Of a DNA stretch of 57,155 nt, positions 3,304 through 55,626 are shown in pieces. The stretch is from Bacillota bacterium (GTDB lineage: Bacteria; Bacillota; UBA994; UBA5500): assembly GCA_041686915.1 (NCBI GenBank), contig JAWLDB010000003.1:1-57155 (forward strand), in the 5' to 3' direction. How positions within the stretch are numbered: position 1 is the first letter of the stretch; the number at the start of each line of letters is the position of its first letter. A program made the position numbers and the translations under genes. Under the pieces are notes generated by a model. It saw nothing but the letters and a program-made list of their open reading frames with translations. It did no database searches and was not told the DNA's origin.

Positions 3304-3335
3304 CAAAAAAGCAGCGGCTCCAGTCGCTGCTTTTT
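3304..3335. terminator. Bidirectional terminator hairpin
   Basis: A-run, GCAGCG-gctccagt-CGCTGC, T-run. Sits between convergent genes. Confidence 0.7.
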
Positions 3336-3342
3336 GCGTTGA

Positions 3343-4269
3343 TCACTGTCCTGTCACTGCTGCTTCTTTCGATACTGAGAGATCTTCCATGCGCGGCATG
3401 TAGTTCATCTCATCAAGAATTTTGTTGTATTCGTCCCGGGTAAGCGCGCGTCCCTTACCTGATAAGGCGACTAAAACAGCTTCCAACGCGTTAGTAGCGT
3501 AAGACCTTCCGCCAATCTCTGGAGAGCCGGTAACTAACATCCGCGCATTGCGTTCACGCAGCAGCTCGACGTCCGCTGAAGTAACAGTGTTAGTCACGAT
3601 AATTTTGCCATCAAGGCGTTCTGGCATGTAGCGGCGGATATAATGGAAGTCGCCGCAAACAATTTTGGCCCAATCGTAATAACTGCCATAGCGCGGTGTA
3701 ATTTTTTCCTGTTCTTTGCCGACCGGGTACAACCATTCAAACGGAATGAACTTTAGTATTGGTCCAATTGCCCTGCCGTAAAGCCAGACCGTTTTGAGAT
3801 TGCGAATGGGTAGAGGCAGGTTCAGGCCGAACATGAAGTCGCCATAAACCACATCGGCCCCTAGTTCATCCAGCGTCTCCGCCATACCGAAACGGTCTAT
3901 TGCTGACATCAAAAGGGTAGGAGTACTCTTGATAGGAATATTGTTTTGCTCCATAATATGAAAGGTGCGTCGTTCTATAGTATCCTTTAAACCACTACCG
4001 TCGACTAAAGGAGTTTGCTTCACGGCTGCCGCCACCCGGTCTGAACCGCGCAGAGTATACGCCCTGCCAGCCGTATGAACATGCAGTTTGATGCCACCGA
4101 CTCCAATCGCATCTACATTTCCGTCAAGATCTCGCATTGTCTGTAAGAGTCTGTCCCAGTCGCCGTCCGTACCGATACGCTCCATGCGTATCTTCTGACC
4201 GAGGAACTCCGTCTCAGCCGCGCTGTTGCGTGTGGAGGAACCCAAGCTCACACTTACAACTCTTAACAC
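3343..4269 (-). CDS. Conserved protein of unknown function (family often auto-annotated quinate 5-dehydrogenase-like)
   Basis: Long ORF. GTG at 4269 lies 8 nt after AGGAGG; the track start at 4278 overlaps the SD. The family assignment is from memory only. Confidence 0.7.
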   Translation of the reverse strand: MLRVVSVSLGSSTRNSAAETEFLGQKIRMERIGTDGDWDRLLQTMRDLDGNVDAIGVGGIKLHVHTAGRAYTLRGSDRVAAAVKQTPLVDGSGLKDTIERRTFHIMEQNNIPIKSTPTLLMSAIDRFGMAETLDELGADVVYGDFMFGLNLPLPIRNLKTVWLYGRAIGPILKFIPFEWLYPVGKEQEKITPRYGSYYDWAKIVCGDFHYIRRYMPERLDGKIIVTNTVTSADVELLRERNARMLVTGSPEIGGRSYATNALEAVLVALSGKGRALTRDEYNKILDEMNYMPRMEDLSVSKEAAVTGQ

Positions 4270-18840: not shown

Positions 18841-19175
18841 GTTGACCCTCCTCGTTATGCAAAACAAGTGAAGCTACAAAAAGCGTATGCAGATATCTCT
18901 GCATGATAGTTGCATCACTGAATGGGTATTCGAAATACTAAGCTAACGAAAATATTATAACATAGCTGCTTGCCAGTCAGGGGAGAAGATTTTTGAGCTA
19001 ATTCAGCGCACTATCTACTAGGATAATAAAGCTAATGTGCGTATATTGGAGCATTTCAGGGGCTACTCGTGATGGAAGCGGGCAGATGAGGTAAAACTGG
19101 GCGTAATGGCATGGAAAGCTTGTAATCCTAGTTTTACCTGGGGCTTGGTCGCGTGCTAGACTTAATTAACAGGCC

Positions 19176-19300
19176 ATAATCGCCGAATTGTCCGCAGGGG
19201 CAAACGGGGGAAACAACTTTTGGGGTGAAGCCTGCTTGCAGGCGGGGGACTCGGCCCCCAACCCGTCAGCTAACCTCGTAGGCGTTCCGGGAAGGCAGGT
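19176..19300 (+). promoter_or_regulatory. Cyclic-di-AMP riboswitch (ydaO-yuaA class) aptamer
   Basis: Conserved blocks in canonical order: CGCCGAAUU (19181), ACGGGGGAAAC (19204-19214), GGGGUGAAGCC (19222-19232), hairpin GCCUGC-uu-GCAGGC (19230-19243), GGGGGACUC (19244-19252), AACCCGUCAGCUAACCUCGUAGGCGUU (19260-19286). P1 pairs CGCC with GGCG. Confidence 0.85.
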
Positions 19301-40929: not shown

Positions 40930-40930
40930 T

Positions 40931-41152
40931 GTGCTAGTTAGAGGGCACACTGCCAGCTACTTCCCAGAGGGTAAGGATGAACTGGAGGTTGTCTGGTCTG
41001 GACCTATCACCGTTAGACAGCTACTTGCCGACCTGGGTGTTGACTCTCTTCTGGTGATGCGAGTTAACGTAAACGGCATGAAAGTAACCAAAGAACACAT
41101 ATTGGCTGACGGGGATGAAGTACTCTTCTTCTCACCGCCCGCTGGAGGTTAG
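40931..41152 (+). CDS. MoaD/ThiS-family ubiquitin-like sulfur carrier (C-terminal Gly-Gly)
   Basis: Ends ...GDEVLFFSPPAGG-stop. Small beta-grasp-size protein immediately after aor. Start uncertain (GTG 40931 or TTG 40895). Confidence 0.7.
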   Translation: MLVRGHTASYFPEGKDELEVVWSGPITVRQLLADLGVDSLLVMRVNVNGMKVTKEHILADGDEVLFFSPPAGG

Positions 41153-41159
41153 TCTCTAT

Positions 41160-41190
41160 AAACCGCCTGCTCGTCAGGCGGTTTGTTTTG
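41160..41190 (+). terminator. Intrinsic terminator of the AOR operon
   Basis: AAACCGCCTG-ctcgt-CAGGCGGTTT followed by GTTTTG. Confidence 0.8.
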
Positions 41191-41308
41191 CTTTTGAGCG
41201 CGGGCGTAACGGGCACTTTTGGACTTTACGTGGTAGAATAGGAATGTCGCCAATATGTCGTGCGTAAGGGGTTGCACGGTAAATATACGACGGTTGGGAG
41301 TGGCAGCT

Positions 41309-43525
41309 ATGAATGTCCCGACAATAACAGATACGACTTACAAGGGCTATATCCTCGACCCGTTCCAACGACAAGCTTTGGACTACATCGAGGCTGGCCG
41401 GTCGGTAATAGTCAGTGCTCCGACGGGTGTTGGTAAGACCCTGATCGCTGATTACCTAATAGAAAAAGCCGTCAAGGAGAATAAGCGTATCATCTATACT
41501 GCGCCCCTTAAGGCGCTTAGTAACCAGAAATACAGACAGTTCAAAGCCAGCCTCGGGGAGGAACTGGTTGGGATCATCACCGGAGATGTTGTTTACAACA
41601 GCGAAGCTCCGGTAGTGATGATGACAACTGAAATCTACCGCAACATGGTATTAACCGAACCCGAGCGGGCAGCAGATATTCACTATCTGATCTTCGATGA
41701 AATCCACTACATTGACTCAGACCGGGGAGTTGCCTGGGAAGAAAGCTTGATCTTTGCTCCACCGCATGTAAAGTTCCTCGGCCTGAGCGCTACCATCGGC
41801 AACTTGCAGCAGTTCATCGGTTGGCTGTCAGAGATCCGGCATGAGGACGTGGCCTTGGTAGTTGAGACAAAGCGGGTAGTGCCGCTCGCTCACCGGTATT
41901 TCAACCTGGGGACAGGTATTGTACGTCTGCCCGAGATGGCTAAGGCGGTAGAGCAGGATAAGCTGAAACTAACAGAGCACCGCGACCTGGTGCGGGCCTT
42001 GCGCTCACACTATTTGCCGGCCTTGATGTTTGTCTTTAGCCGCAGGCAATGTGTTGAGAAAGCCATGGAGACGATGAAGGAGCGTAGCTTCCTCACACGT
42101 GAAGAACATCAGGCAGTCCAACAGGCGCTCGATGCCTACCGGGATCGTTACGCCTTGACAAGCAACTCGGGCTTCCAGCTCTTGGCGCGCATGCTGCTAA
42201 AGGGCGTTGGTTACCATCACGCCGGTCTGTTACCTGCGCTTAAAGACTTGGTGGAAGAACTGTTCGAGAAGAAACTGGTAAAGGTGCTTTATTGTACCGA
42301 GACCTTCTCGGTTGGCGTTAACTATCCGGTGCAAAGCGTTTGCTTCCTCGAGCAGCGCAAGTATGATGGCAAATCGACGCGACCATTGACCACCCAGGAA
42401 TACATGCAGATGGCTGGTCGAGCAGGTCGGCGTGGCATCGATGAACAGGGGTACGTGTTCACACTCATTAGCGGCAATGGCAGGGGGCCTGTCATTCTTG
42501 AGGATTACGCCAACAAGGCTGTTGAGGACATTGGCAGCCAGTTCAGGCTGAGCTGTAATTCCATCTTGAACCTGCTCCGCCGGGATGAACCAGAGCAGAT
42601 AGTCACTGCATACAATTCCAGCTTCGCACACTATCTAAATGAGTCTATGCGTCGCATGTTGGAAACACAGTTGCATAGTTTACAAGACAAGCAGGCAGGG
42701 GTAGCCGGTGCAGTCTGTGGAGATTTCGGAGAACTGGCCTGTCCTATCAACTACCGTAGGGCCAAGTCTCGCCTCGGGGGCATGGAGCGTGACGTTCGGA
42801 AAGGGAAACGCTTCTTAAGGAAACGCTGCGCTGAACTGCGCCAGCAGATTGCCCAAGTCGTCCCTAGGGAATGCACCCGACAAAAGATGGATGCCTGCCG
42901 ACGCGGGCAGCGTGACGCAGTTTCACTGCGTGAGCGGGCTGTTGCAATGGAAGCGCAGCTCCAGAGTCTGCCCACCGAAGCCGACTGGCACAATCGCTTC
43001 CGGTTGATCACGCAGCGTCTCGACCAGTTAGGCTACATTGATGGCGATAAAATCCTCCCCAGAGGTGAACTGGCCAGCGAAATTAACTTTCAGGAGATTC
43101 TGATCACCGAGTTCGTCTTTGCTGGCATGCTGGATGAACTCAGTGTACAGGAGTTGTGCGGTCTGCTGTGTGGCGTAGATTTTGAGGGTCGCTTCAACGA
43201 CTTCACCCACAAGGATCGCCTGCCGGCATTGCGCAAGTACTGGCGCATCGCTGATGACCTGAAGAAGGACCGCGTGCTAGGACCAGACATCATCTACTCG
43301 CCACAGGTAGCGCCGATAGGTTATCGCTGGGCTACCGGGGCGTCTCTGCCTGACCTGCTTGAAATCACTACTATAGAAGAAGGTGACGTAGTCAGTCTGC
43401 TTCGCCGCACCGTCGATGTGCTAAGACAACTGCGTAAGGCGCTCGGGCGCGAGCCGTTCTGGGGTAACAAGCTTGCCGAGTGCATGGAGCTAATGGAGCG
43501 GGACATGGTGAAGGTCGAGCTGTAA
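41309..43525 (+). CDS. Ski2-like superfamily 2 DEAD/DEAH-box helicase
   Basis: Motif I SAPTGVGKT, motif II FDEIHY, motif III LSATIGN, later HHAGLLP and QMAGRAGRRG, plus a long C-terminal helical region. ATG 41309 follows GGGAGTGG. Confidence 0.85.
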   Translation: MNVPTITDTTYKGYILDPFQRQALDYIEAGRSVIVSAPTGVGKTLIADYLIEKAVKENKRIIYTAPLKALSNQKYRQFKASLGEELVGIITGDVVYNSEAPVVMMTTEIYRNMVLTEPERAADIHYLIFDEIHYIDSDRGVAWEESLIFAPPHVKFLGLSATIGNLQQFIGWLSEIRHEDVALVVETKRVVPLAHRYFNLGTGIVRLPEMAKAVEQDKLKLTEHRDLVRALRSHYLPALMFVFSRRQCVEKAMETMKERSFLTREEHQAVQQALDAYRDRYALTSNSGFQLLARMLLKGVGYHHAGLLPALKDLVEELFEKKLVKVLYCTETFSVGVNYPVQSVCFLEQRKYDGKSTRPLTTQEYMQMAGRAGRRGIDEQGYVFTLISGNGRGPVILEDYANKAVEDIGSQFRLSCNSILNLLRRDEPEQIVTAYNSSFAHYLNESMRRMLETQLHSLQDKQAGVAGAVCGDFGELACPINYRRAKSRLGGMERDVRKGKRFLRKRCAELRQQIAQVVPRECTRQKMDACRRGQRDAVSLRERAVAMEAQLQSLPTEADWHNRFRLITQRLDQLGYIDGDKILPRGELASEINFQEILITEFVFAGMLDELSVQELCGLLCGVDFEGRFNDFTHKDRLPALRKYWRIADDLKKDRVLGPDIIYSPQVAPIGYRWATGASLPDLLEITTIEEGDVVSLLRRTVDVLRQLRKALGREPFWGNKLAECMELMERDMVKVEL

Positions 43526-43615
43526 CTTACGTGTGTACATTGTATACTTGTCGGTCAATTCCGGCCTGTGTTAAACTGAGAGAGAAACTTTAGACAATGG
43601 AAATGTAGATGGGGG

Positions 43616-44449
43616 GTGCAAAACAGAGTGCATCAGAAATATGAACAGGTACTGCAACTGCTACGCGAGCAGCAGCGTGTGGTAGTAGCATTTTCTGGCG
43701 GTGTGGATAGTACCCTGCTCCTGCATGCTGCTGTGGAAGCGCTTGGGCACAACCAAGTGCTGGCCATCACCGCGGCAGGCGACCTTTACCCCCAAGGCGA
43801 AATCGCGGCTACCCGTGAGCTTGCTCAAGTAATGTGTGTAGAACTGCTCGAGATTAACCCAGTCGAGCTGGACGCTCCGGCATTTCGCGACAATCCGCCT
43901 GACCGGTGCTATCATTGCAAGAAGGCCATTTTTGGACAAATGCAAGAGATTGCAGAGGCGCGAGGCTACTCCGTAGTAGTCGATGGCTCCAACTTTGATG
44001 ACTTAAGTGACTACCGCCCTGGCCATAAAGCCAGTCAGGAGCTCGGCATCGTCAGCCCGCTGCAAGCAGCAGGCCTGACGAAAGCAGAAATCCGTCAGCT
44101 ATCCAAAGATTTTGGTTTGCCAACATGGAATAAGCCCAGCTTTGCCTGTCTCGCCTCGCGCATCCCGTACGGCTCGGCTGTCGACAGTCTCAAACTGAGG
44201 CAGATCGAACAGGCGGAAGATCTGCTGCGAGAGTCCGGATTCAGGCAATATCGTGTCAGGCATCACGGCAATCTGGCACGGCTTGAGGTCCTGCCAGAGG
44301 ACATGCAGCAACTGCTTAGCCTACGTGAGACTATTGTCCGGGATTTGCAGCTGCTTGGCTTTACCTATGTAGCCATGGACTTGCTCGGGTACCGCACTGG
44401 AGCTATGAATGAGACCTTACAAGGCGTAGGAGGTAAGGCGGGTGTTTGA
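43616..44449 (+). CDS. PP-loop ATP pyrophosphatase, LarE-like (TIGR00268-type) with three conserved Cys
   Basis: PP-loop AFSGGVDST. DRCYHCKK and SFACLASRIPYG align with the positions I recall for LarE (SWYYAKK and ASCSVSSRFPYG). Start uncertain (GTG 43616 or 43628). Confidence 0.75.
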   Translation: MQNRVHQKYEQVLQLLREQQRVVVAFSGGVDSTLLLHAAVEALGHNQVLAITAAGDLYPQGEIAATRELAQVMCVELLEINPVELDAPAFRDNPPDRCYHCKKAIFGQMQEIAEARGYSVVVDGSNFDDLSDYRPGHKASQELGIVSPLQAAGLTKAEIRQLSKDFGLPTWNKPSFACLASRIPYGSAVDSLKLRQIEQAEDLLRESGFRQYRVRHHGNLARLEVLPEDMQQLLSLRETIVRDLQLLGFTYVAMDLLGYRTGAMNETLQGVGGKAGV

Positions 44450-45461
44450 GCGCTATGCCAGACAGGTCGTATTACCGGAAATCGGTGAAAGTGGTCAGCG
44501 CAAACTCTCGCTAGCTACAGTAGCAATTGTCGGTGCAGGCGCGCTAGGCTCTGTTGCCGCCGAAATTCTTATTCGCGCTGGCATAGGGCAGCTCAGTATC
44601 TTTGACCGTGATCTGCTGGAACTCAGCAACCTCCAGCGGCAATTCTTATATACTGAGGGGGACGTGCAGGCCGGCTTGCCTAAAGCGCAGGCTCTGGCTA
44701 ACCATCTGAAGCAGATCAACCGTATTGTCACCGTTTCTGCACAGGTTGTAGATATTAATCATCGCAACGCTACCGCCCTACTCCGGGGACATGATCTGAT
44801 CATTGACGCTACAGACAACTTCCTGGTACGCATGCTGATCAATGATGTTGCTCTGGAGCAAGGCATTCCGTGGGTTTACGGGGGGGCTTTAGGCATGACG
44901 GGGATGGTATTGCCCATTATGCCGGACAAATCAGCCTGTTTCCGCTGCATGGTGCCCGAGATGCCGGCAGCCGGCAGCATGGATACATGTGATCTGGTGG
45001 GGGTGCTGGGCAGTGTAACAGCCATTGTGGCTGCTAACCAGGCTGCAGAGGCAATCAAGCTGATAGTTAACCCTGAGGCTGTCCGTCAGGATTTGCTTGA
45101 GTTCAATATTTGGACAGGGAAGTTTCGTACGCTGCCTTTGCCTAAGGATCCCGATTGCCCAGCTTGCGGGGCTGGAAGCAGGGAGTTTCTTGAGGGCCGC
45201 TACAGCAGGGAAGCGGCATCCCTCTGCGGGCGCAACGCTGTGCAGGTGCAGCCTTCAGAGCAGGCGTTTCCTGACTTTGATCAGCTGGTTAAGCGCCTGG
45301 AGACCGCGGGAAGTGCAAAGGTCAACCGGTTCACTCTCAAGTTTTACCCGACTGAACTGCCAGATGTCGAGTTCACCATCTTCACAGATGGTAGAGCGCT
45401 AATCAAGGGCACCGACGACGTTAACCACGCTCTGTCGTTATATGCAAGGTACATGGGTTAA
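44442..45461 (+). CDS. ThiF/MoeB-family E1-like adenylyltransferase with a C-terminal extension
   Basis: YARQVVLPEIG, GAGALGS, LSNLQRQ, and the zinc pairs CFRC and CPAC. 8-nt overlap with the preceding gene. GTG lies 8 nt after AGGAGG. Confidence 0.85.
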   Translation: MFERYARQVVLPEIGESGQRKLSLATVAIVGAGALGSVAAEILIRAGIGQLSIFDRDLLELSNLQRQFLYTEGDVQAGLPKAQALANHLKQINRIVTVSAQVVDINHRNATALLRGHDLIIDATDNFLVRMLINDVALEQGIPWVYGGALGMTGMVLPIMPDKSACFRCMVPEMPAAGSMDTCDLVGVLGSVTAIVAANQAAEAIKLIVNPEAVRQDLLEFNIWTGKFRTLPLPKDPDCPACGAGSREFLEGRYSREAASLCGRNAVQVQPSEQAFPDFDQLVKRLETAGSAKVNRFTLKFYPTELPDVEFTIFTDGRALIKGTDDVNHALSLYARYMG

Positions 45462-45522
45462 GTGGGCGCATATGGCAACCCATAGAGTAACCAAATAATC
45501 GTAGGTTTGGGGGAACAGGGAA

Positions 45523-46089
45523 ATGCTAAAAATCTTGTGGGAATTGTTTATAGGTTTTACCCGTATTGGCCTGTTGGGGTTTGGTGGTGGACCGTCGTTC
45601 ATACCACTGGTCAAGATAGAGGCCGTTGAGAACTTCAACTGGATGACTGCTGAGGAGTTCGCTGAAGCCTTCGCAATTGGTAACACGCTGCCAGGCCCCA
45701 TCGCCACCAAAATGTCCGGATACATTGGCTACAGAGCAGCAGGTATAATAGGCGCGATAGTTAGCACTACCGCCATGATCCTACCTTCCATATTGGCTCT
45801 GGTCATCATGCTTACCTTGCTAAGCAAGTACAAGGACCTGCCAGCCCTGAAGGGTATGATTAAAGCAATTAAACCGGTTGTTGTCATTCTACTGGCGCAG
45901 GTCGTTATAGATTTCTTCCCTGGCGCCATTCTCAAGGTCGGAATGCCCGCCTGGATCATCGCCGGAATCGCTTTGGTCCTCCTGCAATTTATGAAGGTCC
46001 ATCCCGTATATGTCATCCTTGGAACTCTGGCCTACGGAGCTATCCAGGGGACTTATGCCGAGGCGATTGCCGGGTTCTTCCGCAAATAG
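45523..46089 (+). CDS. Chromate-transporter (CHR) family protein, short single-domain form
   Basis: FGGGPSFIPL and GNTLPGPIATK motifs. 188 aa. Confidence 0.8.
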   Translation: MLKILWELFIGFTRIGLLGFGGGPSFIPLVKIEAVENFNWMTAEEFAEAFAIGNTLPGPIATKMSGYIGYRAAGIIGAIVSTTAMILPSILALVIMLTLLSKYKDLPALKGMIKAIKPVVVILLAQVVIDFFPGAILKVGMPAWIIAGIALVLLQFMKVHPVYVILGTLAYGAIQGTYAEAIAGFFRK

Positions 46090-46092
46090 GCG

Positions 46093-46123
46093 AAAAAAGA
46101 CGCGCCCGACTAGGGCGCGTTTC
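46093..46123. terminator. Probable terminator hairpin
   Basis: A-run, ACGCGCCC-gacta-GGGCGCGT, then a short T tract. Confidence 0.55.
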
Positions 46124-46359
46124 AACTTATAGGGGGAGGAGTATAAGAGAGCAGTTATCCCTCCTGCATTTAGACGTCATGGCTTGTCTGTAAGTTCCCA
46201 ACTTTTCGCGAAAAATCATAAAAACTTTGTGGATTTGAGAGGGAAATTGCTTTCTCATGGTGAACAGCAATTTGTCAGGGGTAATCTGCTCGAGGTAGGC
46301 GACGGTAGCTCTGCAGTTTGAGCTGGCAATTTTGCGATGCCTGATGGAGGAGTGGCAGC

Positions 46360-47703
46360 TTGGCTACAGAAACCAAGAAGATTTTGGTCGTGGACGATAA
46401 CAGACTGACGTTAAACATCCTGCGCAAGAGCCTGCAGGAAGCAGGCTATCAAGTTGTGAGTGCCACTAGTGGACTGGATGCTCTCAAGCAGGTTGAGAAG
46501 GAAGTTATTCATCTCATTTTGCTTGATGTTGTTATGCCCGATATGGACGGTTACGAAGTCATCCGGCAGTTACGCAATAATACCCGTACCAGCCATATCC
46601 CGATTATCCTGGTTAGTTCACGAGCCAGCTTGGCTGATAAGGTGCAAGGCTTTGAAGCGGGAGCAGACGATTATATTACCAAGCCTTTTGAGCTGCTTGA
46701 GCTCTTGGCCAGAGTGATGGCTCATATGCGCAGTGCGCGCCGAGCCCGTTCGATTAGTCCGCTTACTGGTTTGCCGGGGAATATCCGCATTGAAGACGAG
46801 TTAAAAGAGCGTGTGGAGAGTGGTGAGAAGTTCGCCGTTCTCTATGTTGATATGGACAACTTTAAGGCCTACAACGATGCCTACGGTTTTTTGCAGGGAG
46901 ACGAAGCCATTAAGCTGTTAGCCCGTACGATGGAGGACGTTGCCAGGCAATTTGGTCACAGCGATGACCTGATAGGCCACATCGGTGGAGACGATTTCGT
47001 CGTAGTAACCAGGCCTGAGGTAGTCGATGCTGTTTGCGGTGAAGTCATCACCAGGTTCGACCGCGCGATTAAGTTGATGTATGACCCGGAAGACAGAGAA
47101 CGCAACGGCGTCCTCGTTCTCGACCGCGCAGGCAGGGAAGTCCGCTATCCCGTCATTTCGCTGTCAATCGGTGTTATCAGCAACGAACACCGTGTTATCA
47201 ACAGTCATTGGGAAGTTGGGGAGATTGCGGCTGGAATAAAACACAAAGCCAAGAGTTTGCCTGGCAGTGTGTATGTGAAAGATGAACGACCACCTATAGG
47301 TAGCGTCGTTAACGGTTCTGGTTGTCGTGTGCTGGTGGTCGAAGACGATCGGCTGATTAGTGCATTGCTGCGTGGCAATCTTGAACACTGCGGATATGAG
47401 GTGGACGTTGCTGGTAGTGCCATGGCTGCTCTACAGTCGATCAAGGAACGGGTACCCGATTTGCTGGTTCTGGATGTAGTCCTACCTGGTACCTCAGGAT
47501 ACATGCTCTGCCGCAAACTAAAAGGCGACCCGCATACCAGCCAAGTCGCAGTTCTTATGGTCAGTTCCAGCGGAAATCCTGAGACCGCTGCGGAGGCAGG
47601 GGCAGACGCTTTCTTGGCCAAGCCCTTTGATATTAGAAAGCTATTGCAGGTTGTCTATGACCTTTTGCGGGAGCAAAAGCAAAAATCTGCCAACAATAAC
47701 TGA
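46360..47703 (+). CDS. Response regulator, REC-GGDEF-REC architecture (GGDDF variant)
   Basis: N-terminal REC (VVDDN...LLDVVMPDMDG...KPF). GGDEF domain (LTGLPGN, VDMDNFKAYNDAYGFLQGD, HIGGDDFVV). Second REC (VVEDD...LDVVLPGTSG...KPF). TTG start 9 nt after GGAGG. Confidence 0.85.
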   Translation: MATETKKILVVDDNRLTLNILRKSLQEAGYQVVSATSGLDALKQVEKEVIHLILLDVVMPDMDGYEVIRQLRNNTRTSHIPIILVSSRASLADKVQGFEAGADDYITKPFELLELLARVMAHMRSARRARSISPLTGLPGNIRIEDELKERVESGEKFAVLYVDMDNFKAYNDAYGFLQGDEAIKLLARTMEDVARQFGHSDDLIGHIGGDDFVVVTRPEVVDAVCGEVITRFDRAIKLMYDPEDRERNGVLVLDRAGREVRYPVISLSIGVISNEHRVINSHWEVGEIAAGIKHKAKSLPGSVYVKDERPPIGSVVNGSGCRVLVVEDDRLISALLRGNLEHCGYEVDVAGSAMAALQSIKERVPDLLVLDVVLPGTSGYMLCRKLKGDPHTSQVAVLMVSSSGNPETAAEAGADAFLAKPFDIRKLLQVVYDLLREQKQKSANNN

Positions 47704-47726
47704 TGGGTGTCAACAACTCCATACAC

Positions 47727-47758
47727 AAAACCTGCCCCAATGGGCAGGTTTGTTTTTG
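47727..47758. terminator. Bidirectional terminator hairpin
   Basis: AAAACCTGCCC-caat-GGGCAGGTTT followed by GTTTTT. Confidence 0.85.
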
Positions 47759-47795
47759 CCTCTGTTCGCATAGATATGGCACACTGATGCACTGC

Positions 47796-48239
47796 TCATT
47801 CGGGTTCCTCAAATGAGGTGGTAGCCCCCTTCGGACTTGCTCGATGGCCGCCAAACAGCGACAGTATGTAATCGTCTGATCCCGCAGGTAGCTGCAAGGC
47901 TCTTGTATATGGCGGAAAACAGATCAGATTGGAAGCTGCATTGTAGTAACAGGCTATCTCACCTTGTTCAGTAGTCAGTGTGATACAGTATTCCCAAGGA
48001 ATATCCCTGATCTCAGTATAGGGCTTTGATTGTCTAAGTATGCGGATGATGCTACCCATCTCCATAGCTGATAACCAGCGGGCGGTTTCGTCTGCCATGC
48101 GGGTTATGCAGACAGCTTCCAGAGACAACCCGGGTTTCGACTTGGACATTGCATCTGCAACTACCTGTTCTGGGATACCACATAATACTACCACCGCTAG
48201 TGTTACTACTAACAAGGCTCTGTGCGCTTGCATCATCAT
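47796..48239 (-). CDS. Secreted/lipoprotein-like hypothetical protein
   Basis: N-terminal signal-like segment ALLVVTLAVVVLCG. AAGGAGGGAG SD. Confidence 0.6.
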   Translation of the reverse strand: MMMQAHRALLVVTLAVVVLCGIPEQVVADAMSKSKPGLSLEAVCITRMADETARWLSAMEMGSIIRILRQSKPYTEIRDIPWEYCITLTTEQGEIACYYNAASNLICFPPYTRALQLPAGSDDYILSLFGGHRASPKGATTSFEEPE

Positions 48240-48375
48240 CTGAACTCCCTCCTTTTCAACAGCATCTGAAGCCAGGTACTTTCTTATACTCAGTTCCCTG
48301 TGCTGAGCCTTAAAGGGAATATCACCCAGAAAGTCGAATTAGTTGCATGTGCGGAGAGTTTGGAGGCGATTACAG

Positions 48376-50211
48376 ATGAGTATTTCAAAAATGCTCTTTC
48401 CTATGCAAATAACCCGTCGCATCTATATTTGGATTTGTCTTCTGGTAATCTGCACCACGGCTGTACAGGTAGTGGTAGTGCGCGGCAGCTTCCTCAGTGC
48501 GGAAAAAGTAGAGCGTGAGAAAGTGCTCTTGCGGGTCGCAAGCTCCCTCGAAAGACATCTGCAGAATGATGTCATCAGTCAGTTATTGGCACTAGATGCT
48601 GCAGAACTCCCGGTTGACGCGCAGGTTTCAACCTTGAACCGGGAACTTCAGCCTGTATTGGATAGGACTGCGCTGAACCATCCGGACCTTGGTATTGGCG
48701 TTTACTCAATCAAGCTTGACAGCGTGCTCGCAATTTGGCCCTTTGACTCTCAGCTTTTGACGAGTGTATCCAAGGACCTTCCATATTTTAACTGTTATCA
48801 GACCGGAGAACCGGATGTCATTCAAACTACCACTTCTCTATCGAGGGATGGATCAGCTATCATGGCTGTCACTTATCCCATCAAGCTGCATGGGGAAGTC
48901 ATCGGCCATACCTGGGCTAACGTGAAGATGAACGACGTCTATGCAGCAGCCTGGCAGAACGCTGCCCGTACCGTTCTGACCGGGACGATGCTTCTGATAA
49001 TCATTCTGCTAGCCACCTGGTGGTTCTTCTTGCGTTTTCAGCAGGAACTGCAAAACTTTGCTTCGGCTGTTGCTCAAGGTGAGTCGGGCCTACCCAAGGG
49101 GCTTCTGCCAGAGTTGAACCCATTGCTGGATGCCATTCAAGACCATACGCATCGCTTGGAGGAGGAGATTGCTGCTAAGAACCGCACACAGCGCGAGTTG
49201 AACAGCTTCTTCAACGCTTCTCCCGACTTGATCACGGTCTCTTCCATTCAGGGAAAGCTACAGCGGGTTAACCCGGCTGTCAAACAGATTCTGGGATATG
49301 AACCGGAAGAATACGTTAGCATCCCTTTGCTAGAGCGCACACACCCGGATGATGTTCAGTCTCTGCAAGAGACCGTCTGCTCTATTGGTAAAGGGCAAAG
49401 TGTGACACACTACGAAACCAGATACCGTTGTAAGGATGGATCCTACAAGTGGATTGCCTGGTCAGCAGTCTCCATTCTGGATGAAGGTTTGATTGTCGCA
49501 GTTGGCCGGGACATGACATCGCAGAAGCAATGGGAGAAGGACATGTTGCGCCTGGACAGGCTCAACCTGGCCGCACAGATGGCAGCGAGCATCAGCCATG
49601 AGATCAGGAATCCGATGACTACGGTTCGTGGTTATTTGCAGCTGTTTGGCAAGAAAGATGAATACCGGGCATATCGCGAGCATTTTGAACTGATGATTGA
49701 CGAACTGGACAGAGCTAATTCCATCATCAGTGAGTTCCTTTCAGTTGCTCGCAACCGTGCTACAGATTTGAAGTCGCATGACCTAAACCACCTGATCAGG
49801 TTACTGCATCCTCTGCTCCAGGCTGACGCCAATCTGGCCAAAGCTCAGACTGTGTTGCGCTTGTCGCCAGTCTCGCGGCTGCAGCTGGACGAAAAGGAGA
49901 TCAGGCAGCTTTTGCTGAACTTGGTGCGCAATGCCGTTGAAGCGATGCCTAAGGGAGGGACGGTTACTATCAGCACCTGGGAGCGGGATGGCCGCGTACT
50001 ATTGGAAGTGAAGGATGAGGGGACTGGCATACCTGAGGAAATCCAGGACAGGATCGGATCGCCGTTCTTTAGCACCAAGGACAATGGTACCGGCCTGGGG
50101 TTGGCAGTATGCTATAGAATAGTCGAGGAACACCGGGCACAAATCAGCTTTGAGAGTAGCCAACAAGGCACTGCCTTTAGGGTTTGTTTTCTATCTGATG
50201 CGCCAGACTAG
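48376..50211 (+). CDS. Sensor histidine kinase (extracytoplasmic sensor, PAS, HisKA, HATPase)
   Basis: Two TMs flank a ~190-aa loop. PAS region. H-box SHEIRNPMTTVRGY, then LVRNAVEAM, DEGTGI and GTGLGLAV. ATG 48376 lies 9 nt after GGAGG. Confidence 0.85.
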   Translation: MSISKMLFPMQITRRIYIWICLLVICTTAVQVVVVRGSFLSAEKVEREKVLLRVASSLERHLQNDVISQLLALDAAELPVDAQVSTLNRELQPVLDRTALNHPDLGIGVYSIKLDSVLAIWPFDSQLLTSVSKDLPYFNCYQTGEPDVIQTTTSLSRDGSAIMAVTYPIKLHGEVIGHTWANVKMNDVYAAAWQNAARTVLTGTMLLIIILLATWWFFLRFQQELQNFASAVAQGESGLPKGLLPELNPLLDAIQDHTHRLEEEIAAKNRTQRELNSFFNASPDLITVSSIQGKLQRVNPAVKQILGYEPEEYVSIPLLERTHPDDVQSLQETVCSIGKGQSVTHYETRYRCKDGSYKWIAWSAVSILDEGLIVAVGRDMTSQKQWEKDMLRLDRLNLAAQMAASISHEIRNPMTTVRGYLQLFGKKDEYRAYREHFELMIDELDRANSIISEFLSVARNRATDLKSHDLNHLIRLLHPLLQADANLAKAQTVLRLSPVSRLQLDEKEIRQLLLNLVRNAVEAMPKGGTVTISTWERDGRVLLEVKDEGTGIPEEIQDRIGSPFFSTKDNGTGLGLAVCYRIVEEHRAQISFESSQQGTAFRVCFLSDAPD

Positions 50212-50306
50212 TGGAGCCTGAGCCAGGAATATGATACAGTTTAATGAGAGCCTACATAGGGGATAATCGAAGGCAAGAAAGCCTTGTCGGGAAAGTTGGT
50301 GCGAAT

Positions 50307-50768
50307 GTGAAAAAGACAGTAGCTGATGTCAGGGAAATATTGAAGGAGCGTGACCTCAGACTGACTCCACAACGGGAAGCAATTCTGAGGATACTACTGC
50401 GGGGCCAAGATGACCATATGACTGCAGAGGATATATATGATCGTACACGTGATGAAGCACCTGACATAGGGTTGGCTACTATTTACCGGACCCTTGACCT
50501 CTTTGAGGAGTTAGGATTGGTTTCCCGCTTGGAGTTTGGGGCCGGCGGTCGCCGTTATGAGTTTAGTCTCGACAGGGACAAGCATTATCACCACCATTTG
50601 CTGTGTCTGGGTTGTGGGAATATCCTCGAGTTTAATGAGGATCTGCTGGATACCTTGGAGGAGACGATAGGCAAGGAGAGCGGCTTTCAGATTGTAGACC
50701 ACAGCCTGCGTTTCTTTGGTTATTGTGCCAAGTGTCAAAGTAAGAGGCGTGAAGCAAAGCATGAGTAG
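50307..50768 (+). CDS. Fur-family metalloregulator (Fur/PerR/Zur not distinguishable by eye)
   Basis: LRLTPQREAILRIL wHTH, HYHHHLLCLGCG and CAKC zinc motifs. Start at GTG 50307 gives a typical N-terminus (track start is 50244). Confidence 0.8.
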   Translation: MKKTVADVREILKERDLRLTPQREAILRILLRGQDDHMTAEDIYDRTRDEAPDIGLATIYRTLDLFEELGLVSRLEFGAGGRRYEFSLDRDKHYHHHLLCLGCGNILEFNEDLLDTLEETIGKESGFQIVDHSLRFFGYCAKCQSKRREAKHE

Positions 50769-51039
50769 CGAAGATTTAGTAAATGACAGGCACGGCCTGA
50801 TTAGACGTCTGAAACGTATTGAAGGCCAGGTGCGTGGTGTGCAGCGGATGCTGGAAGAGGAGCGCTATTGTGTAGATGTACTAGTGCAATTGGCTGCCAT
50901 TCGCGCTGGAATCGACAAGGTTGGTTTGGCCGTGATCGAAGGCCATACTCGTGGTTGCCTGCGCAGTGCTATCACCACCGGTCAAGGTGATGAGGCCATC
51001 GATGAACTGATGGATGTATTGGCTCAGTTCCTTAAATAG
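50761..51039 (+). CDS. csoR: CsoR-family copper-sensing repressor
   Basis: RLKRIEGQVRGVQRM, with the C-H-C ligand pattern (YCVDV ... GHTRGC). ATG 50761 overlaps the fur-family stop by 8 nt. Confidence 0.85.
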   Translation: MSSEDLVNDRHGLIRRLKRIEGQVRGVQRMLEEERYCVDVLVQLAAIRAGIDKVGLAVIEGHTRGCLRSAITTGQGDEAIDELMDVLAQFLK

Positions 51040-51059
51040 ACTTTGAGGGGGAAATATAG

Positions 51060-51269
51060 ATGCAAAATGCAAAGCTTAAGGTTGCCGGAATGACGTGAGG
51101 TCACTGCAAGTCCGTGGTAACGCGGGTACTGTCCGGTTTGGACGGAGTGCAATCTGTTAACATCGACCTCGCTTCCGGCATGGTGGAAGTAAGCTATGAT
51201 GCCGCCAAGGTGACTGTAGAAGCTCTTAAACAGGCAGTTCACGAAGTGGGTTATGATGTCTTAGATTAG
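51060..51269 (+). CDS. copZ: CopZ-like heavy-metal-associated domain protein with an in-frame TGA (candidate selenocysteine) at codon 13
   Basis: Not in the ORF track. ATG 51060 lies 8 nt after GAGGGGG. Translation: MQNAKLKVAGMT-[TGA 51096-51098]-GHCKSVVTRVLSGLDGVQSVNIDLASGMVEVSYDAAKVTVEALKQAVHEVGYDVLD-TAG. It is colinear with the CopZ GMxCxxC fold. selA/selB lie downstream. Confidence 0.7.
51099..51150 (+). promoter_or_regulatory. Candidate SECIS region downstream of the UGA
   Basis: Hairpin A (51109-51130): AGT-CCGTG-[GTAA]-CGCGG-(GT)-ACT. Alternative hairpin B (51128-51148): ACT-GTCC-[GGTTT]-GGAC-(GG)-AGT. Neither was validated against a SECIS model. Confidence 0.35.
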
Positions 51270-51279
51270 TTGCTCACGT

Positions 51280-51306
51280 GCCCGGCAAGCCCGGGCCTTT
51301 ATTTTT
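51280..51306 (+). terminator. Terminator-like hairpin after the CopZ-like gene
   Basis: GCCCGG-caagc-CCGGGC followed by CTTTATTTTT. Confidence 0.6.
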
Positions 51307-51337
51307 GACCAACTCTAACGACTTGGAGGTAGAAAAG

Positions 51338-52267
51338 ATGGCAGAGAATCAATTTGACGTAATCGTAGTAGGGGCCGGCCCGGCCGGGTTAACTGCAGCC
51401 CTTTATGCTGCTCGGGCTAACCTGCGTACAGTCATCTTTGAGCGACTGGCTGCAGGCGGGCAAGCGGCGACCACATTCGACATCGAAAACTATCCCGGCT
51501 TCCCACAGGGTATTGGTGGTTTTGAGTTAAGTTTTTCTATGCTGGAGCAGGCACAGAAGTTTGGAGCGGAGTTGCGTCTGGCAGAGGTGACAGCCATGGA
51601 CCTATCGGGCAACGTAAAAAAGGTAACTACCTATGAGGGTGAGCTGACAGCTACGACGGTAATCCTGGCCACAGGTGCGCGGTCCCGGCTGTTAGGTGTG
51701 CCCGGCGAAGAACGGTTGCGCGGTCGTGGCGTGTCATATTGCGCGGTTTGTGACGGAGCCTTCTTCCGCGACAAAGTTGTTGCTGTGGTAGGCGGTGGTG
51801 ACTCGGCTGTAGAAGAGGCCGTTTATCTGACCCGTTATGCCAGCAACGTTCACCTGTTGGTTCGTCGCGATGCACTGCGTGCTACTCCGGTTGTGCAGGC
51901 CAAGCTTAAAGGCCACCCTAAGATAGAGATTCATTGGAATACTGCCATTGATGACATCCTGGGAGAAGATAGGGTTACCGGGCTTAGGTTAAAGGATACC
52001 GTGTCCGGCGAGTTGCGTACAATGGATGCTGACGGAGTGTTTGTCTACATCGGGCTCCTGCCAAACAATGAAGGGTTTCGTGAACTGGTCAAGCTTGATG
52101 ACCACGGATATATCATCACCGATGAGAATATGCAGACCAGCCTGCCAGGCGTGTTTGCAGCCGGTGATATTCGCCAAAAGAGTCTGCGCCAGGTGGCAAC
52201 AGCCGTTGGCGATGGCGCTATCGCTGGAGTCGCCGTGCAACGCTATCTAGAAGAGCTGGAGCACTAG
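51338..52267 (+). CDS. trxB: Thioredoxin-disulfide reductase
   Basis: GAGPAG FAD motif, redox CAVCDG, GGGDSA NADPH motif. ATG 51338 follows GGAGG. Confidence 0.9.
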   Translation: MAENQFDVIVVGAGPAGLTAALYAARANLRTVIFERLAAGGQAATTFDIENYPGFPQGIGGFELSFSMLEQAQKFGAELRLAEVTAMDLSGNVKKVTTYEGELTATTVILATGARSRLLGVPGEERLRGRGVSYCAVCDGAFFRDKVVAVVGGGDSAVEEAVYLTRYASNVHLLVRRDALRATPVVQAKLKGHPKIEIHWNTAIDDILGEDRVTGLRLKDTVSGELRTMDADGVFVYIGLLPNNEGFRELVKLDDHGYIITDENMQTSLPGVFAAGDIRQKSLRQVATAVGDGAIAGVAVQRYLEELEH

Positions 52268-52282
52268 AGGAGGGTGGTCTGC

Positions 52283-53707
52283 ATGTCCAAACAGGAACAG
52301 CAGATGCTGTTGCGCAGGCTGCCTGCCGTCGACACAGTGCTACGCATGAGCGAGACTGATCGGATAATTGCACAGTACGGTAGCACTCAGGTGACACAGC
52401 AACTGCGCCAGCTGACGGATGATTGGAGAAAGCAAATCTTGTCAGGAGAGCTAAACGGTACAGCTTTCGACGCACAACTAGCTGCGCTCCATCAGCAGCT
52501 GACACAGCGCCTGTTGCGTGCTAACCGTTCTAGCTTGCGTCCGGTAATCAATGCTACCGGCATCATCATCCATACCAACTTAGGCCGTTCGCTGCTACCT
52601 GATGTCGCTCGCGAACAGATTAATGCAGTCGCCAGTGCCTACTCTACTTTGGAAGTGGACGTGGAAACTGGTGATCGCGGCTCGCGCTACTCGCATGTAG
52701 TGGATCTGCTGACAGAGTTGACCGGCGCAGAAGATGCCATCGTAGTCAATAACAATGCTGGGGCAGTGCTGCTGGTGCTAGGCGCGCTAGCCCAAGGACA
52801 GCAAGTAATCGTCTCGAGAGGGCAGCTGGTGGAAATCGGCGGTTCATTCCGCATTCCGGAAGTGATGGAGCAGAGCGGCTGTCAATTGGTAGAGGTGGGA
52901 GCCACAAATAAGACACATTTGTTTGACTATGAGCGTGCCATCCGGCCTGAGACTGCTGCCCTGCTGAAAGTGCACACCAGCAATTACCGCATGGTGGGTT
53001 TCACTCAGGAAGTGTCGAGTGAGGATATGGTCAAACTAGCCCATGAGCGAGGCTTGCTAGCTCTCGAGGATTTGGGTAGCGGAGTGCTGATCAACCTTGA
53101 GAAGCTCGGGCACATTCATGAGCCGACAGTGCAGGAAGCACTGCAGGCAGGGATGGACATCGTTACGTTCAGCGGAGATAAACTCTTGGGCGGCCCGCAA
53201 GCAGGGGTTATTGTCGGAAAGGCTGACCTGATTAGGCGCATCCGCAAGCACCCGCTCACCAGAGCGCTTCGCATAGATAAGCTTACACTGGCAGGCTTGG
53301 AGGCTACACTGCGCCTGTATAGAGATGAAGCGAACGCAGTGCACCAAATCCCTACACTACGCATGCTCGCTGCAACGGCGGAAGAACTGATGTGTAAAGC
53401 CAGGCAGCTGCAGACGGAGTTAGCGGAACTGATTGGTGACCTGGCAAAGGTTGATGCGGTGGACAGCGTGGCCCAAGTGGGCGGAGGATCACTCCCTGGT
53501 TATGAGTTTCCCAGCGCAGCCGTAGCCATAGTGCCGAAAGAGATGAGTGCCAATAGTCTTGAGGCAGCGTTACGGTTGGGTAATGCCGCGGTATTTAGCC
53601 GTATCTACCGGGAACAAGTACTGCTCGACGTTCGTACCTTGCAACCCGGCGAGGACACGATTGTGCGCGATGCAGTTGTCGCTGCGTTACAGGGGGTAGG
53701 GGTATGA
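52283..53707 (+). CDS. selA: L-seryl-tRNA(Sec) selenium transferase
   Basis: 474 aa. N-terminus LLRRLPAVDTVL and PLP-lysine block FSGDKLLGGPQAG. ATG 52283 follows GGAGGG. Confidence 0.9.
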   Translation: MSKQEQQMLLRRLPAVDTVLRMSETDRIIAQYGSTQVTQQLRQLTDDWRKQILSGELNGTAFDAQLAALHQQLTQRLLRANRSSLRPVINATGIIIHTNLGRSLLPDVAREQINAVASAYSTLEVDVETGDRGSRYSHVVDLLTELTGAEDAIVVNNNAGAVLLVLGALAQGQQVIVSRGQLVEIGGSFRIPEVMEQSGCQLVEVGATNKTHLFDYERAIRPETAALLKVHTSNYRMVGFTQEVSSEDMVKLAHERGLLALEDLGSGVLINLEKLGHIHEPTVQEALQAGMDIVTFSGDKLLGGPQAGVIVGKADLIRRIRKHPLTRALRIDKLTLAGLEATLRLYRDEANAVHQIPTLRMLAATAEELMCKARQLQTELAELIGDLAKVDAVDSVAQVGGGSLPGYEFPSAAVAIVPKEMSANSLEAALRLGNAAVFSRIYREQVLLDVRTLQPGEDTIVRDAVVAALQGVGV

Positions 53708-55626
53708 AACACGTGATCGTTGGTACTGCCGGTCATATAGACCATGGTAAGACAACGCTGGTTAAGGCCTTGACCGGCATAGATACGGACCGGTGGAAGG
53801 AAGAAAAAGAGCGGGGCATAACCATTGACTTGGGCTTTGCCTATTTTGACTTGCCAGGCGGACGCCGGGCGGGAATTGTTGATGTACCGGGTCACGAGAA
53901 ATTCATCAAGAACATGCTTGCAGGCGCGGGCGGGATAGATATTGTGGTGCTCGTGGTAGCAGCTGATGAAGGCATCATGCCGCAAACCCTTGAGCATCTG
54001 AACATACTGTCCTTGCTTGAGACCAAGCAGGGCATCGTCGCCCTGACCAAGGTAGATATGGTAGATCCTGACTGGCTGGAGCTGGTGATGGACGACGTGC
54101 ACGATCGCCTGCAGGGCACATTTTTGGAGGATGCACCCATAATCCCAGTCTCAGCCGTCACCCGTCAGGGATTAGACGACTTGGTTGCAGCTATTGATCA
54201 GCTGACCGAGGAAGTGCAAGCTAGGGACGAGCACTTGCCTTTTCGTTTGCCAATTGACCGGGTCTTCAGCATCACCGGTTTTGGCACGGTAGTCACAGGC
54301 ACCTTGCTTTCGGGAATTGTTAACGTGGGGGACAGGGCGGAGGTGCACCCAAGTAACCAGGAAACCCGTGTTCGCTCGGTGCAAGTGCATGGCAAGAAAG
54401 CAGATCAGGGCTTCGCCGGGCAACGTGTAGCAATGAATGTAACCGGCCTTGAAGTCAGCGACCTCAAGCGTGGCGATGTGTTGGTCTCGCCTGGGTTGAT
54501 TAGCCCGACACTGATGCTGGATGTCCGATTGCAGCTTTTGAAAGATACAGATAAGCCTCTGGAAAACAGGGAGCGCCTAAGGTTATATACCGGTACCAGT
54601 GAGGTATTCTGCCGGGCAGTGCTGTTGGACGCTGAACTGTTGATGCCTGGTGAGACTGCTTTGGTGCAGCTCAGGTTGGAAGAACCGGTAGCGGTACTTT
54701 CTGGCGACCGGTTTGTTGTCCGTACCTATTCCCCAATGTTTACTATTGGGGGGGGCACCATTCTGGACGCGCACCCTAAGAAACGTAAGCGGTTTAAGCA
54801 AGAAGGGCTCGACGAACTGATGCGGCGAGAAAGCGGGGGAGACATCGAGATCCTCAATCAGACACTGCTGCAGCATAGTGACGAATTCCCCGCAGAAGAC
54901 GAGCTCTTCCGCCTGGCTGGACGGCCAGCTGAGGATTTGGCTGAGGCGCTTGAACAACTGCAGGCGGATGATCTGGCAGTCGCTTTGACGGTAGATGGCA
55001 AACCTACGTATATACATGCTGACTATCTGCAGAAGCTGGGAGAACGAGCGCAGAAAGCTCTAAACGATTTTCACGGCCGCTACCCACTGCGTCCTGGCAT
55101 GCCCAAGGAAGAGTTGCGTAGCCGGGTCTTCCGCAACGCATCCAGTAAGCTCTTTAACAGCCTTCTCACCTTGCTGAGTGGGGAAGGTAAGCTGGTAGTA
55201 AAGGGTGGTGTGATCACTGCCCCCGCTTTTCAGGTTGAGTTCAAGGGACAAAGCGCTGTTCTGCGTGGCAAGCTACTGGATGCGCTAACGTCCAATCAGT
55301 TCAGCCCTCCCGACCTGAGTGAATTGTCTGATCTACTGCGCGAGAGCCCAGACCGGTTGAGCGAACTGGTGAATGCCTTAGATAACTTGGGCGAAGTAGT
55401 GAAGGTGAGTGGCGAAATCACCCTCGCTACTGAGGCTTACCTGGCAGCCAAAGAGAAGGTGGTTGCAACCATCCGTGAGAAGGGTAGCCTGGCTTTGGCT
55501 GACCTGCGTGATGCGTTGCAGACCAGTCGCAAGTACGCCCTGCCCATTCTGGAGTATCTCGATGCACAGAAGGTTACCGTACGCAAGGGCGACGTCAGGG
55601 TACTGCACTCCCAGTACTCGGAATAA
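53704..55626 (+). CDS. selB: Selenocysteine-specific translation elongation factor
   Basis: GTPase motifs [18 protein letters not shown] and TKVD, plus long C-terminal winged-helix SECIS-binding domains. ATGA overlap with selA. Confidence 0.9.

Follow-up and report, generated by a model that had tools for sequence, protein, structure and literature searches.

The question raised by the locus described here is whether a UGA codon between csoR and trxB in a Bacillota bacterium terminates translation or is read as selenocysteine (Sec). The locus lies in a stretch of 57,155 nt (GenBank assembly GCA_041686915.1, contig JAWLDB010000003.1), which we refer to as the window. Between the two genes runs a copZ-like frame with a heavy-metal-associated (HMA) domain, interrupted once by TGA at the column of the first metal-binding Cys. 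Based on the orthologous loci, the selection acting on them and the decoding machinery encoded nearby, we propose that positions 51060-51269 very probably encode a 69-residue CopZ-type Cu(I) metallochaperone in which Sec is the first metal ligand.

A copZ-like frame with an in-frame UGA, and its orthologues

Translation from the ATG at 51060 gives MQNAKLKVAGMT, followed by the TGA at 51096-51098 and then by GHCKSVVTRVLSGLDGVQSVNIDLASGMVEVSYDAAKVTVEALKQAVHEVGYDVLD up to the TAG at 51267-51269. The TGA is the sole internal stop of this frame and 56 open codons follow it; it stands in the context G-M-T-stop-G-H-C, giving a metal-binding loop M-T-U-G-H-C. In alignments it falls in the column where the HMA motif invariably has its first Cys, and the column of Cys16 is likewise invariant. 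An earlier sequence-only reading of this DNA had given the Shine-Dalgarno sequence, the start, the TGA, the 56 codons and the TAG, all of which proved exact on re-reading, and had placed the TGA at the first Cys of GMTCxxC within a complete HMA domain. The alignment bears this out, as does profile PF00403 (HMA), which scores 74.1 bits when the stop is taken as Cys (E = 1.2e-20, cutoff 24.8) and covers residues 6-66, corresponding to profile positions 2-62 of 62. That reading had also named CsoR upstream and selA and selB downstream on the same strand, and the profile matches agree with it. Its description of an empty open reading frame (ORF) track between csoR and trxB has to be amended, as a 51-aa ORF with a GTG start is listed at 51114-51269 on the + strand, although this is only the part of copZ that follows the TGA. 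In the orthologues described below the Shine-Dalgarno sequence is GAGGAGG or GGAGG at the equivalent position.

The family assignment points to Cu(I) CopZ. The top NCBIfam model for the protein is CopZ_Bs (NF033795) at 83.8 bits, as against 48.7 bits for the MerP model, and the syntenic orthologues are likewise nearer to Cu(I) CopZ. A point against the assignment is that the window protein falls marginally under the curated CopZ cutoffs (83.8 vs 91 for NF033795; 61.3 vs 62 for TIGR00003); other Sec forms exceed them, L063 with 99.2 bits for NF033795 and 78.1 for TIGR00003, and L015 and L137 for TIGR00003. The nearest solved stand-alone proteins are CopZ structures (6FF2, 2QIF/3I9Z and 1K0V), and the solved relatives as a whole comprise CopZ together with the N-terminal domains of CopA and ATP7B. 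The Cys homologue P0002 (51% identical), the one protein whose fold was modelled, is predicted to be beta-alpha-beta-beta-alpha-beta (pLDDT 84) with the loop at residues 11-14.

Among the 120 best database relatives, all named members are copper chaperone CopZ or copper-binding protein. In a collection of 5.8 billion proteins the 121 best relatives are all Cys forms, with MTCGHC in 118 of them and U in none. A protein search of genome contigs, with U replaced by C in the query, brought up seven remote homologues of the Cys type (35-51% identity); orthologues and the window's own genome were absent from the result. A word-indexed protein search with the single copZ-like protein yielded only 7 matches, none of them close and full-length, and exact look-ups of the window CsoR and of the 51-aa ORF after the TGA found no record in the gene index.

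Because the window proteins are not indexed and the copZ-like protein lacks close full-length relatives, the adjacent TrxB was used as an anchor. Ten lineages, the window counted among them, were chosen by similarity of this TrxB and blind to the presence of the TGA. All of the anchor relatives, at 63-81% identity, belong to uncultured Bacillota; the closest relatives that carry a name are Moorella-like (~59% identity). The order fur-csoR-[gap]-trxB-selA-selB is kept across these loci. In six of the ten lineages the gap contains an intact HMA gene of 69 codons whose first-Cys column reads TGA (the window, L008/9, L012, L015/16, L137 and L140), of which L016, L137 and L140 represent metagenome-assembled genomes (MAGs) deposited at NCBI; no gene is called in the csoR-trxB gap of the Sec lineages. 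Two lineages have TGC at this column, L010/11 with GMSCNHC and L139 with GMACEHC, and these Cys forms are annotated as ordinary HMA genes of 68-69 aa. The remaining two lineages, L013/14 and L138, have no copZ, and csoR abuts trxB. We note that in L013/L014 (3709-4001) and L138 (2214-2501) csoR ends 12-17 nt before trxB, such that CsoR persists there without a neighbouring chaperone.

Every Sec orthologue of this sample has exactly 56 open codons past the TGA and no other stop or frameshift. In pairwise comparisons among the window, L008, L012, L015 and L010, the ratio of non-synonymous to synonymous substitution rates (dN/dS) is 0.11-0.37 for the 56 codons after the TGA, with dS of 0.6-2.5, and 0.07-0.67 for the 12 codons before it, which are also conserved as protein. 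As dS is near saturation, the low ratio downstream indicates that the region after the TGA is translated. Elsewhere in the window TGA terminates 8 of 29 long ORFs, selA included, so that the genetic code is standard and UGA is not reassigned; a reassigned code (code 4 or 25) was considered and ruled out by this stop-codon usage. The conserved TGA, the selection downstream of it and the normal use of TGA as a stop together exclude genome-wide reassignment as well as a pseudogene or an error of sequencing.

The Sec form is not confined to these loci. Metagenome contigs were scanned for GGN ATG ACN TGA GGN CRY TGY, a pattern restricted to GMT-U-G(H/R)C, and the read-through translations were scored against the HMA profile. 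Among the 120 matches listed there are at least 18 intact HMA genes with an in-frame TGA, most of them stand-alone, ~70 aa long and with exactly 56 residues after U. Seven of the listed matches (L018, L021, L042, L064, L074, L090 and L102) show the same fur-csoR-copZ-trxB-selA-selB locus; in L062 and L075 the Sec-CopZ gene lies directly downstream of CopA-type P1B-ATPases that carry Cys-HMA domains, and in L063 and L108 it adjoins CsoR. A GMT-U-GRC variant (L070, L087, L125 and L126; for L087 original coordinates 457-4201, minus strand) has longer N- and C-terminal extensions, finds its top NCBIfam match in NF041115 (69.7 bits, under the cutoff of 95) and belongs to a mer-like cluster that also encodes MerR, a Cys-form MerT-HMA fusion, a protein with a zf_CopZ domain and a pyridine-nucleotide disulfide oxidoreductase of 450 aa. 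The Sec form of CopZ is therefore recurrent and occurs in metal-homeostasis contexts, mostly of the copper type; one uncultured Bacillota clade has conserved it as the prevailing form, and elsewhere it is found in cop operons.

The suggestion that the gene is a pseudogene, in which TGC or TGT has become the nonsense codon TGA, or contains a one-base sequencing or assembly error, can appeal to the single base that separates TGA from TGC, to the gene callers that leave the locus empty in related assemblies and to the missing gene-index record of the window protein, but with the TGA shared by at least six independently assembled and diverged lineages and by the metagenomic genes, and with a dN/dS that is incompatible with an untranslated remnant, we give it almost no credence.

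Decoding of the UGA and a candidate SECIS element

If the UGA is translated, the remaining issue is which amino acid is inserted. The selA and selB genes are intact, their products both exceed the NCBIfam equivalog cutoffs, and the C-terminus of SelB is made up of winged-helix domains (Pfam SelB-wing_2 and SelB-wing_3) that bind the selenocysteine insertion sequence (SECIS). Downstream of the UGA the message can form a hairpin, GUCCGUG-GUAA-CGCGGGU, whose stem begins 14 nt after the UGA; counted from the U of that codon, the G and U of its loop are 21-22 nt downstream. The bacterial SECIS (bSECIS) consensus, said to go back to Zhang and Gladyshev in 2005, reportedly puts some 16-37 nt between the UGA and the apical loop, which opens with G (GU). 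We take the spacing and the loop GU of the window hairpin to fit this consensus and to resemble the SECIS elements of Escherichia coli fdhF and of Moorella.

Comparison among lineages adds to this. Hairpins with 4 bp or more and a G in an apical loop that starts at +20/+21 are found in 7 of 12 Sec lineages as against 1.5 expected from synonymous-codon resampling, with P ~2-5e-5, a value that has to be discounted about 10-20-fold since the position was chosen after seeing the data. None of eight Cys forms has such a hairpin. Two of these serve as natural controls: L007 encodes the identical CGHCKSVVTR of the window, and L010 shares KAAVTR with the Sec form L015, and in neither case do the codons of the Cys form pair. 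The stems at the common site differ among lineages (CCGUG/CGCGG, CGCA/UGCG, CGAC/GUCG and GCGAG/CUCGC), and within the two register groups each hairpin's own register pairs 78-83% of cells whereas slid registers pair 10-50%.

Several observations weigh against the hairpin as a recoding signal. It is short, and its energy of -6.2 kcal/mol lies only in the top 7% of synonymous resamples; in 5 of the 12 Sec lineages there is no hairpin at +20/+21; each of the two register groups shows a single compensatory pair, a level of covariation that is not significant (167/500 and 80/500 shuffles equal it); conservation at synonymous sites is no higher inside the hairpin region than outside it (0.45 vs 0.43); and Rfam, run over 50900-51400 at the gathering threshold and at E <= 10, reports neither a SECIS nor another relevant RNA. 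The regional folding energy is unremarkable (z = -1.23 for 51090-51160), the mean folding z under synonymous resampling is not distinctive (-0.6 for Sec forms vs -0.3 for Cys forms), and a Fisher combination of the per-lineage hairpin energies, computed by hand, gives ~0.08, which we judge non-significant. From its position, its loop and its restriction to the TGA forms, we nevertheless consider the hairpin at 51110-51127 a likely candidate for the SECIS.

A second stable hairpin, GUCC-GGUUU-GGAC at 51129-51146, lies inside the codons for L-S-G-L-D-G. It is conserved in the window's subclade (L008, L012, L015 and L140), not in L137 or in more distant Sec forms, and was rejected as the SECIS on account of this restriction and of a loop past the usual distance; it might extend or stabilise the SECIS in that subclade.

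Could the UGA be translated by other means? A near-cognate or suppressor tRNA, or a reassigned code, might insert Trp, Cys or Arg, or the product might simply be the 51-aa fragment that starts at GTG 51114. Such explanations gain from the fact that selenium insertion at this codon is a prediction from sequence, from the thermodynamic and covariational weakness of the hairpin, and from the window's gene content: neither ARAGORN nor Rfam finds a tRNA(Sec) (selC) within the window, and selD was not seen there either, which also counts against Sec decoding as such. They have to contend, however, with UGA being an ordinary stop in this DNA and with a column that holds an invariant metal-ligand Cys, a textbook site of Sec/Cys exchange at which Trp or Arg would destroy the metal site. 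Intact selA and selB genes in the same conserved synteny and a hairpin specific to the TGA forms also speak against them, and the fragment in particular is at odds with the protein-level conservation of the 12 upstream codons, which have their own Shine-Dalgarno sequence and start. We consider this group of explanations very unlikely, and infer that Sec is actually inserted. The Sec assignment of the sequence-only reading is upheld by the TGA/TGC orthologues, the purifying selection, the TGA-specific hairpin, the intact selA and selB and the normal use of TGA as a stop elsewhere; the orthologues by which it could be judged, with TGA or TGC, are intact and not truncated. As to the SECIS for which it proposed a search, a compatible hairpin is present and an Rfam match is not.

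According to the Sec reading, a ribosome reaching the UGA would encounter SelB-GTP, loaded with Sec-tRNA(Sec) and bound to the hairpin; SelB would insert Sec in place of termination, and translation would run on through 56 more codons.

The locus and the metal

The features of the locus are collected in Table 1. A CCCGGG...CCCGGG inverted repeat followed by a T-run, equivalent to the terminator after the window's copZ, is found downstream of copZ in L008, L010, L012, L015, L137 and L140. Because this terminator is conserved, we take fur-csoR-copZ to be one transcription unit, of which copZ would be the last gene, and trxB-selA-selB to be separate. The trxB-selA-selB block holds its place in lineages with Sec-CopZ, with Cys-CopZ or with no copZ. 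Given the terminator and this independence of copZ type, the proximity of selA and selB speaks for the ability to decode Sec and not for an operon link.

Table 1. Positions of the copZ-like gene, its signals and its neighbours in the window
Feature	Position	Strand	Basis	Remark
copZ-like selenoprotein gene (proposed), 69 codons, HMA domain	51060..51269	+	translation, PF00403, NF033795, orthologues	
Shine-Dalgarno GAGGGGG	51045..51051	+	read from sequence	8 nt before ATG 51060
In-frame UGA, proposed Sec codon	51096..51098	+	alignment with HMA motif	residue 13, first metal ligand
TGC, Cys as second metal ligand	51105..51107	+	sequence, translation	residue 16 of the UxxC site
SECIS-like hairpin (candidate)	51110..51127	+	folding, lineage comparison	apical loop GUAA 51117-51120
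Fur-family regulator	50310..50768	+	PF01475, 126.6 bits	first gene of fur-csoR-copZ; likely GTG start 50310, mechanical ORF from 50244
csoR-family metal-sensing repressor	50761..51039	+	PF02583, 102.5 bits	directly upstream of copZ, overlaps end of fur
Intrinsic terminator GCCCGG-CAAGC-CCGGGC + T-run	51280..51305	+	terminator scan	right after copZ stop
trxB, thioredoxin-disulfide reductase	51338..52267	+	TIGR01292, 392.5 bits vs cutoff 343	first gene past terminator
selA, L-seryl-tRNA(Sec) selenium transferase	52274..53707	+	TIGR00474, 606 bits vs cutoff 268; PF03841, 520 bits	
selB, Sec-specific elongation factor	53704..55626	+	TIGR00475, 393 bits vs cutoff 242	SelB-wing_2 and SelB-wing_3 domains

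The CsoR of the window has as its top NCBIfam match the copper-sensing RicR (72 bits, below the cutoff), and its sequence contains a Cys (RYC), a His and a Cys (GHTRGC), which we take to be the C-H-C fingerprint of the Cu(I) sensors in the CsoR family. The CsoR residues, the match of the chaperone to the CopZ family and the relatives adjacent to CopA support copper as the metal. The ORFs between 36 and 57 kb of the window include no copA, and a simple pattern search upstream of fur gave no convincing CsoR operator; these two results count against copper, and for this reason the assignment rests on family and neighbourhood.

The UxxC HMA protein may be a genuine selenoprotein with a role other than in copper homeostasis, for example in handling another soft metal or metalloid (Hg, Ag or Cd), or in redox or selenium metabolism together with TrxB, SelA and SelB. 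The GMT-U-GRC relatives in their mer-like cluster and the mercury- or heavy-metal-related annotation of the known HMA-type selenoproteins would fit the former, while the trxB-selA-selB genes that always come next in the window's clade and a UxxC motif that is also typical of redox selenoproteins would fit the latter; the missing copA suits either. In opposition to both, the window protein and its syntenic orthologues are nearest to Cu(I) CopZ and not to MerP, the adjacent regulator is a CsoR-family protein with Cys/His/Cys of the Cu(I) type, and other Sec-CopZ genes directly follow CopA. A closer association with TrxB and the Sel proteins is further opposed by the conserved terminator between copZ and trxB, and by the way in which the trxB-selAB block stays put when copZ is of the Cys type or absent. 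We therefore think a role outside copper homeostasis unlikely, and infer copper as the metal.

For the proposed copper chaperone, the U13 selenolate and the C16 thiolate would presumably bind Cu(I) in linear Se-Cu(I)-S coordination, and the protein would presumably buffer Cu(I) and, like Cys-CopZ, deliver it to CsoR and/or a P1B-ATPase of the CopA type. The selenolate is more acidic, is more polarisable and can be re-reduced more easily, which may change how tightly the protein binds Cu(I), how fast the metal is exchanged and how well the site resists over-oxidation; any chemical advantage of Sec is presumptive. More speculatively, Sec-CopZ might be tied functionally to TrxB, SelA and SelB, either through TrxB re-reducing an Se-S bond or through a coupling of copper stress to selenium use.

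Some further observations concern the neighbouring genes. The nearest NCBIfam model to the Fur-family regulator is Bacillus-type Fur (168 bits, under the cutoff of 220), and its orthologues have 148-155 aa. Upstream of the likely fur start, at 50259-50300 in the window, a conserved GGGRAYAAT is followed by a palindrome or hairpin and then by GGAAAG(C/T)TGGTG. The palindrome halves change together, being AAGGC-aagaaa-GCCTT (50270-50285) in the window, AAGGCG-agat-CGCCTT in L008 and ACAGGC-agNa-GCCTGT in L010 and L012; equivalents of the element exist in L008, L010, L012 and L015, and it is absent from the copZ-less L013 and L138 and from L139. The palindrome may serve the fur-csoR-copZ unit as operator, or form a hairpin in a leader RNA.

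The mechanical trxB ORF opens at GTG 51278, an extension (51278-51337) that contains the copZ terminator. The true start is almost certainly ATG 51338, which is preceded by GGAGGT and gives 309 aa as in the orthologues, whose TrxB proteins range over 309-314 aa. Further upstream, the region 39067-50211 encodes an aldehyde:ferredoxin oxidoreductase, a DEAD/DSHCT helicase, ThiF, a chromate transporter, a response regulator-GGDEF protein and a PAS histidine kinase; synteny with the related loci is partial, and the region fits an anaerobic Bacillota genome. Rfam also places two riboswitches on the + strand, c-di-AMP (ydaO/yuaA) at 19171-19299 (86.7 bits) and lysine at 1110-1299 (85.2 bits).

Significance and relation to known systems

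The copZ gene between csoR and trxB is left out by standard gene callers and apparently also by the annotations deposited for related MAGs, and the curated hidden Markov models (HMMs) for selenoproteins miss Sec-CopZ. With the gene calls empty and without a fitting selenoprotein HMM, a recurrent copper-homeostasis gene is systematically overlooked, and a dedicated Sec-CopZ model would recover such genes. In nearly all selenoproteins that have been characterised Sec serves redox catalysis, and for trafficking proteins in which it acts purely as a metal ligand there are only predictions. The natural Sec and Cys orthologues of CopZ at one locus offer a tractable means of examining the effect of selenium on Cu(I) affinity, transfer kinetics and oxidation resistance. 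Because they share a genomic setting, this 7-kDa protein, if our reading is true, would be an unusually clean system in which to set selenium in metal binding against selenium in redox catalysis. Recoding by SelB and a SECIS and metal binding by HMA domains are both standard, and there are precedents for Sec in HMA-type proteins, so that no new mechanism is revealed; the main value of the finding lies in the correction of an annotation gap and in a compact natural Sec/Cys pair for the study of selenium as a metal ligand.

Whether Sec-containing HMA proteins had already been catalogued was a point on which the sequence-only reading was unsure, and the answer is that they have been in other architectures, but that a stand-alone UxxC CopZ was not found there. 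The prokaryotic selenoprotein catalogues of 2022 and 2026 include a UxxC heavy-metal P-type ATPase, a putative mercuric transport protein and a UxxU metal-binding protein; MerP is listed as a selenoprotein in the GOS paper, and mercuric-type selenoproteins also appear in the list for C. hydrogenoformans. These catalogues contain no PF00403 entry and no stand-alone UxxC entry, and full-text literature searches turned up no description of a stand-alone UxxC CopZ, with subscription-only papers and supplementary lists not exhaustively covered. We put forward, as a proposal for which we see the case as evenly balanced, that the stand-alone UxxC CopZ constitutes an uncatalogued and fairly widespread subfamily, the first known soluble metallochaperone to ligate its metal through a selenolate, which is predominant in one uncultured Bacillota clade (6 Sec : 2 Cys : 2 absent) and has undergone repeated Sec/Cys switches in a fixed locus.

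The closest known system is CopZ of the Bacillus subtilis type (NF033795/TIGR00003; 1K0V, 2QIF and 3I9Z, and also 6FF2), which like the window protein has ~69 aa and a full-length HMA domain. The CopZ loop is G-M-T/S-x-x-H-C, represented by MTCGHC in the Cys relatives and by MTUGHC in the window protein, and in csoR-copZA operons a stand-alone copZ lies next to csoR, as it does here. Unlike the Bacillus gene, the window gene has UGA (Sec) for its first copper ligand and no adjacent copA, and is followed by a terminator and by trxB-selA-selB.

Among selenoproteins, the UxxC heavy-metal P-type ATPase (TIGR01525/PF00122) shares the UxxC motif, and the N-terminal metal-binding domains of this family are HMA domains; if, as the motif suggests, its Sec lies in such a domain, it is an earlier case of an HMA-type CxxC whose first Cys has given way to Sec. 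However, it is a membrane protein of >700 aa, whereas the window protein is soluble, has 69 aa, lacks E1-E2 ATPase and HAD domains and is encoded with its own Shine-Dalgarno sequence, stop and terminator. NF041115 (UxxU_metal_bind, 'putative mercuric reductase') describes, like the window protein, a small stand-alone HMA fold (~74 aa) with Sec in the loop, but it has two Sec residues (UxxU) where the second ligand of the window protein is Cys; against its cutoff of 95 bits the window protein scores 62.8 and eight other Sec-CopZ forms score 44-70, none reaching the cutoff. The NF045683 MerT/CopZ fusion-like proteins and the selenoproteins named 'MerP' and 'putative mercuric transport protein' also have Sec in heavy-metal trafficking proteins that include an HMA/CopZ module or are akin to one. 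These mercury-type proteins are membrane or periplasmic proteins (235-aa model) with C/SxxU or CU motifs, in contrast to the window gene, which has no MerT domain and a cytosolic, cop-type context; NF045683 (cutoff 375 bits) matches the window protein at 33.8 bits through its CopZ-like C-terminal part only, and the Sec-CopZ forms overall at 34-44, these forms grouping with ordinary CopZ and TIGR00003. Sec in an HMA-type metal site is thus already known, and the stand-alone UxxC CopZ lies outside the existing selenoprotein models.

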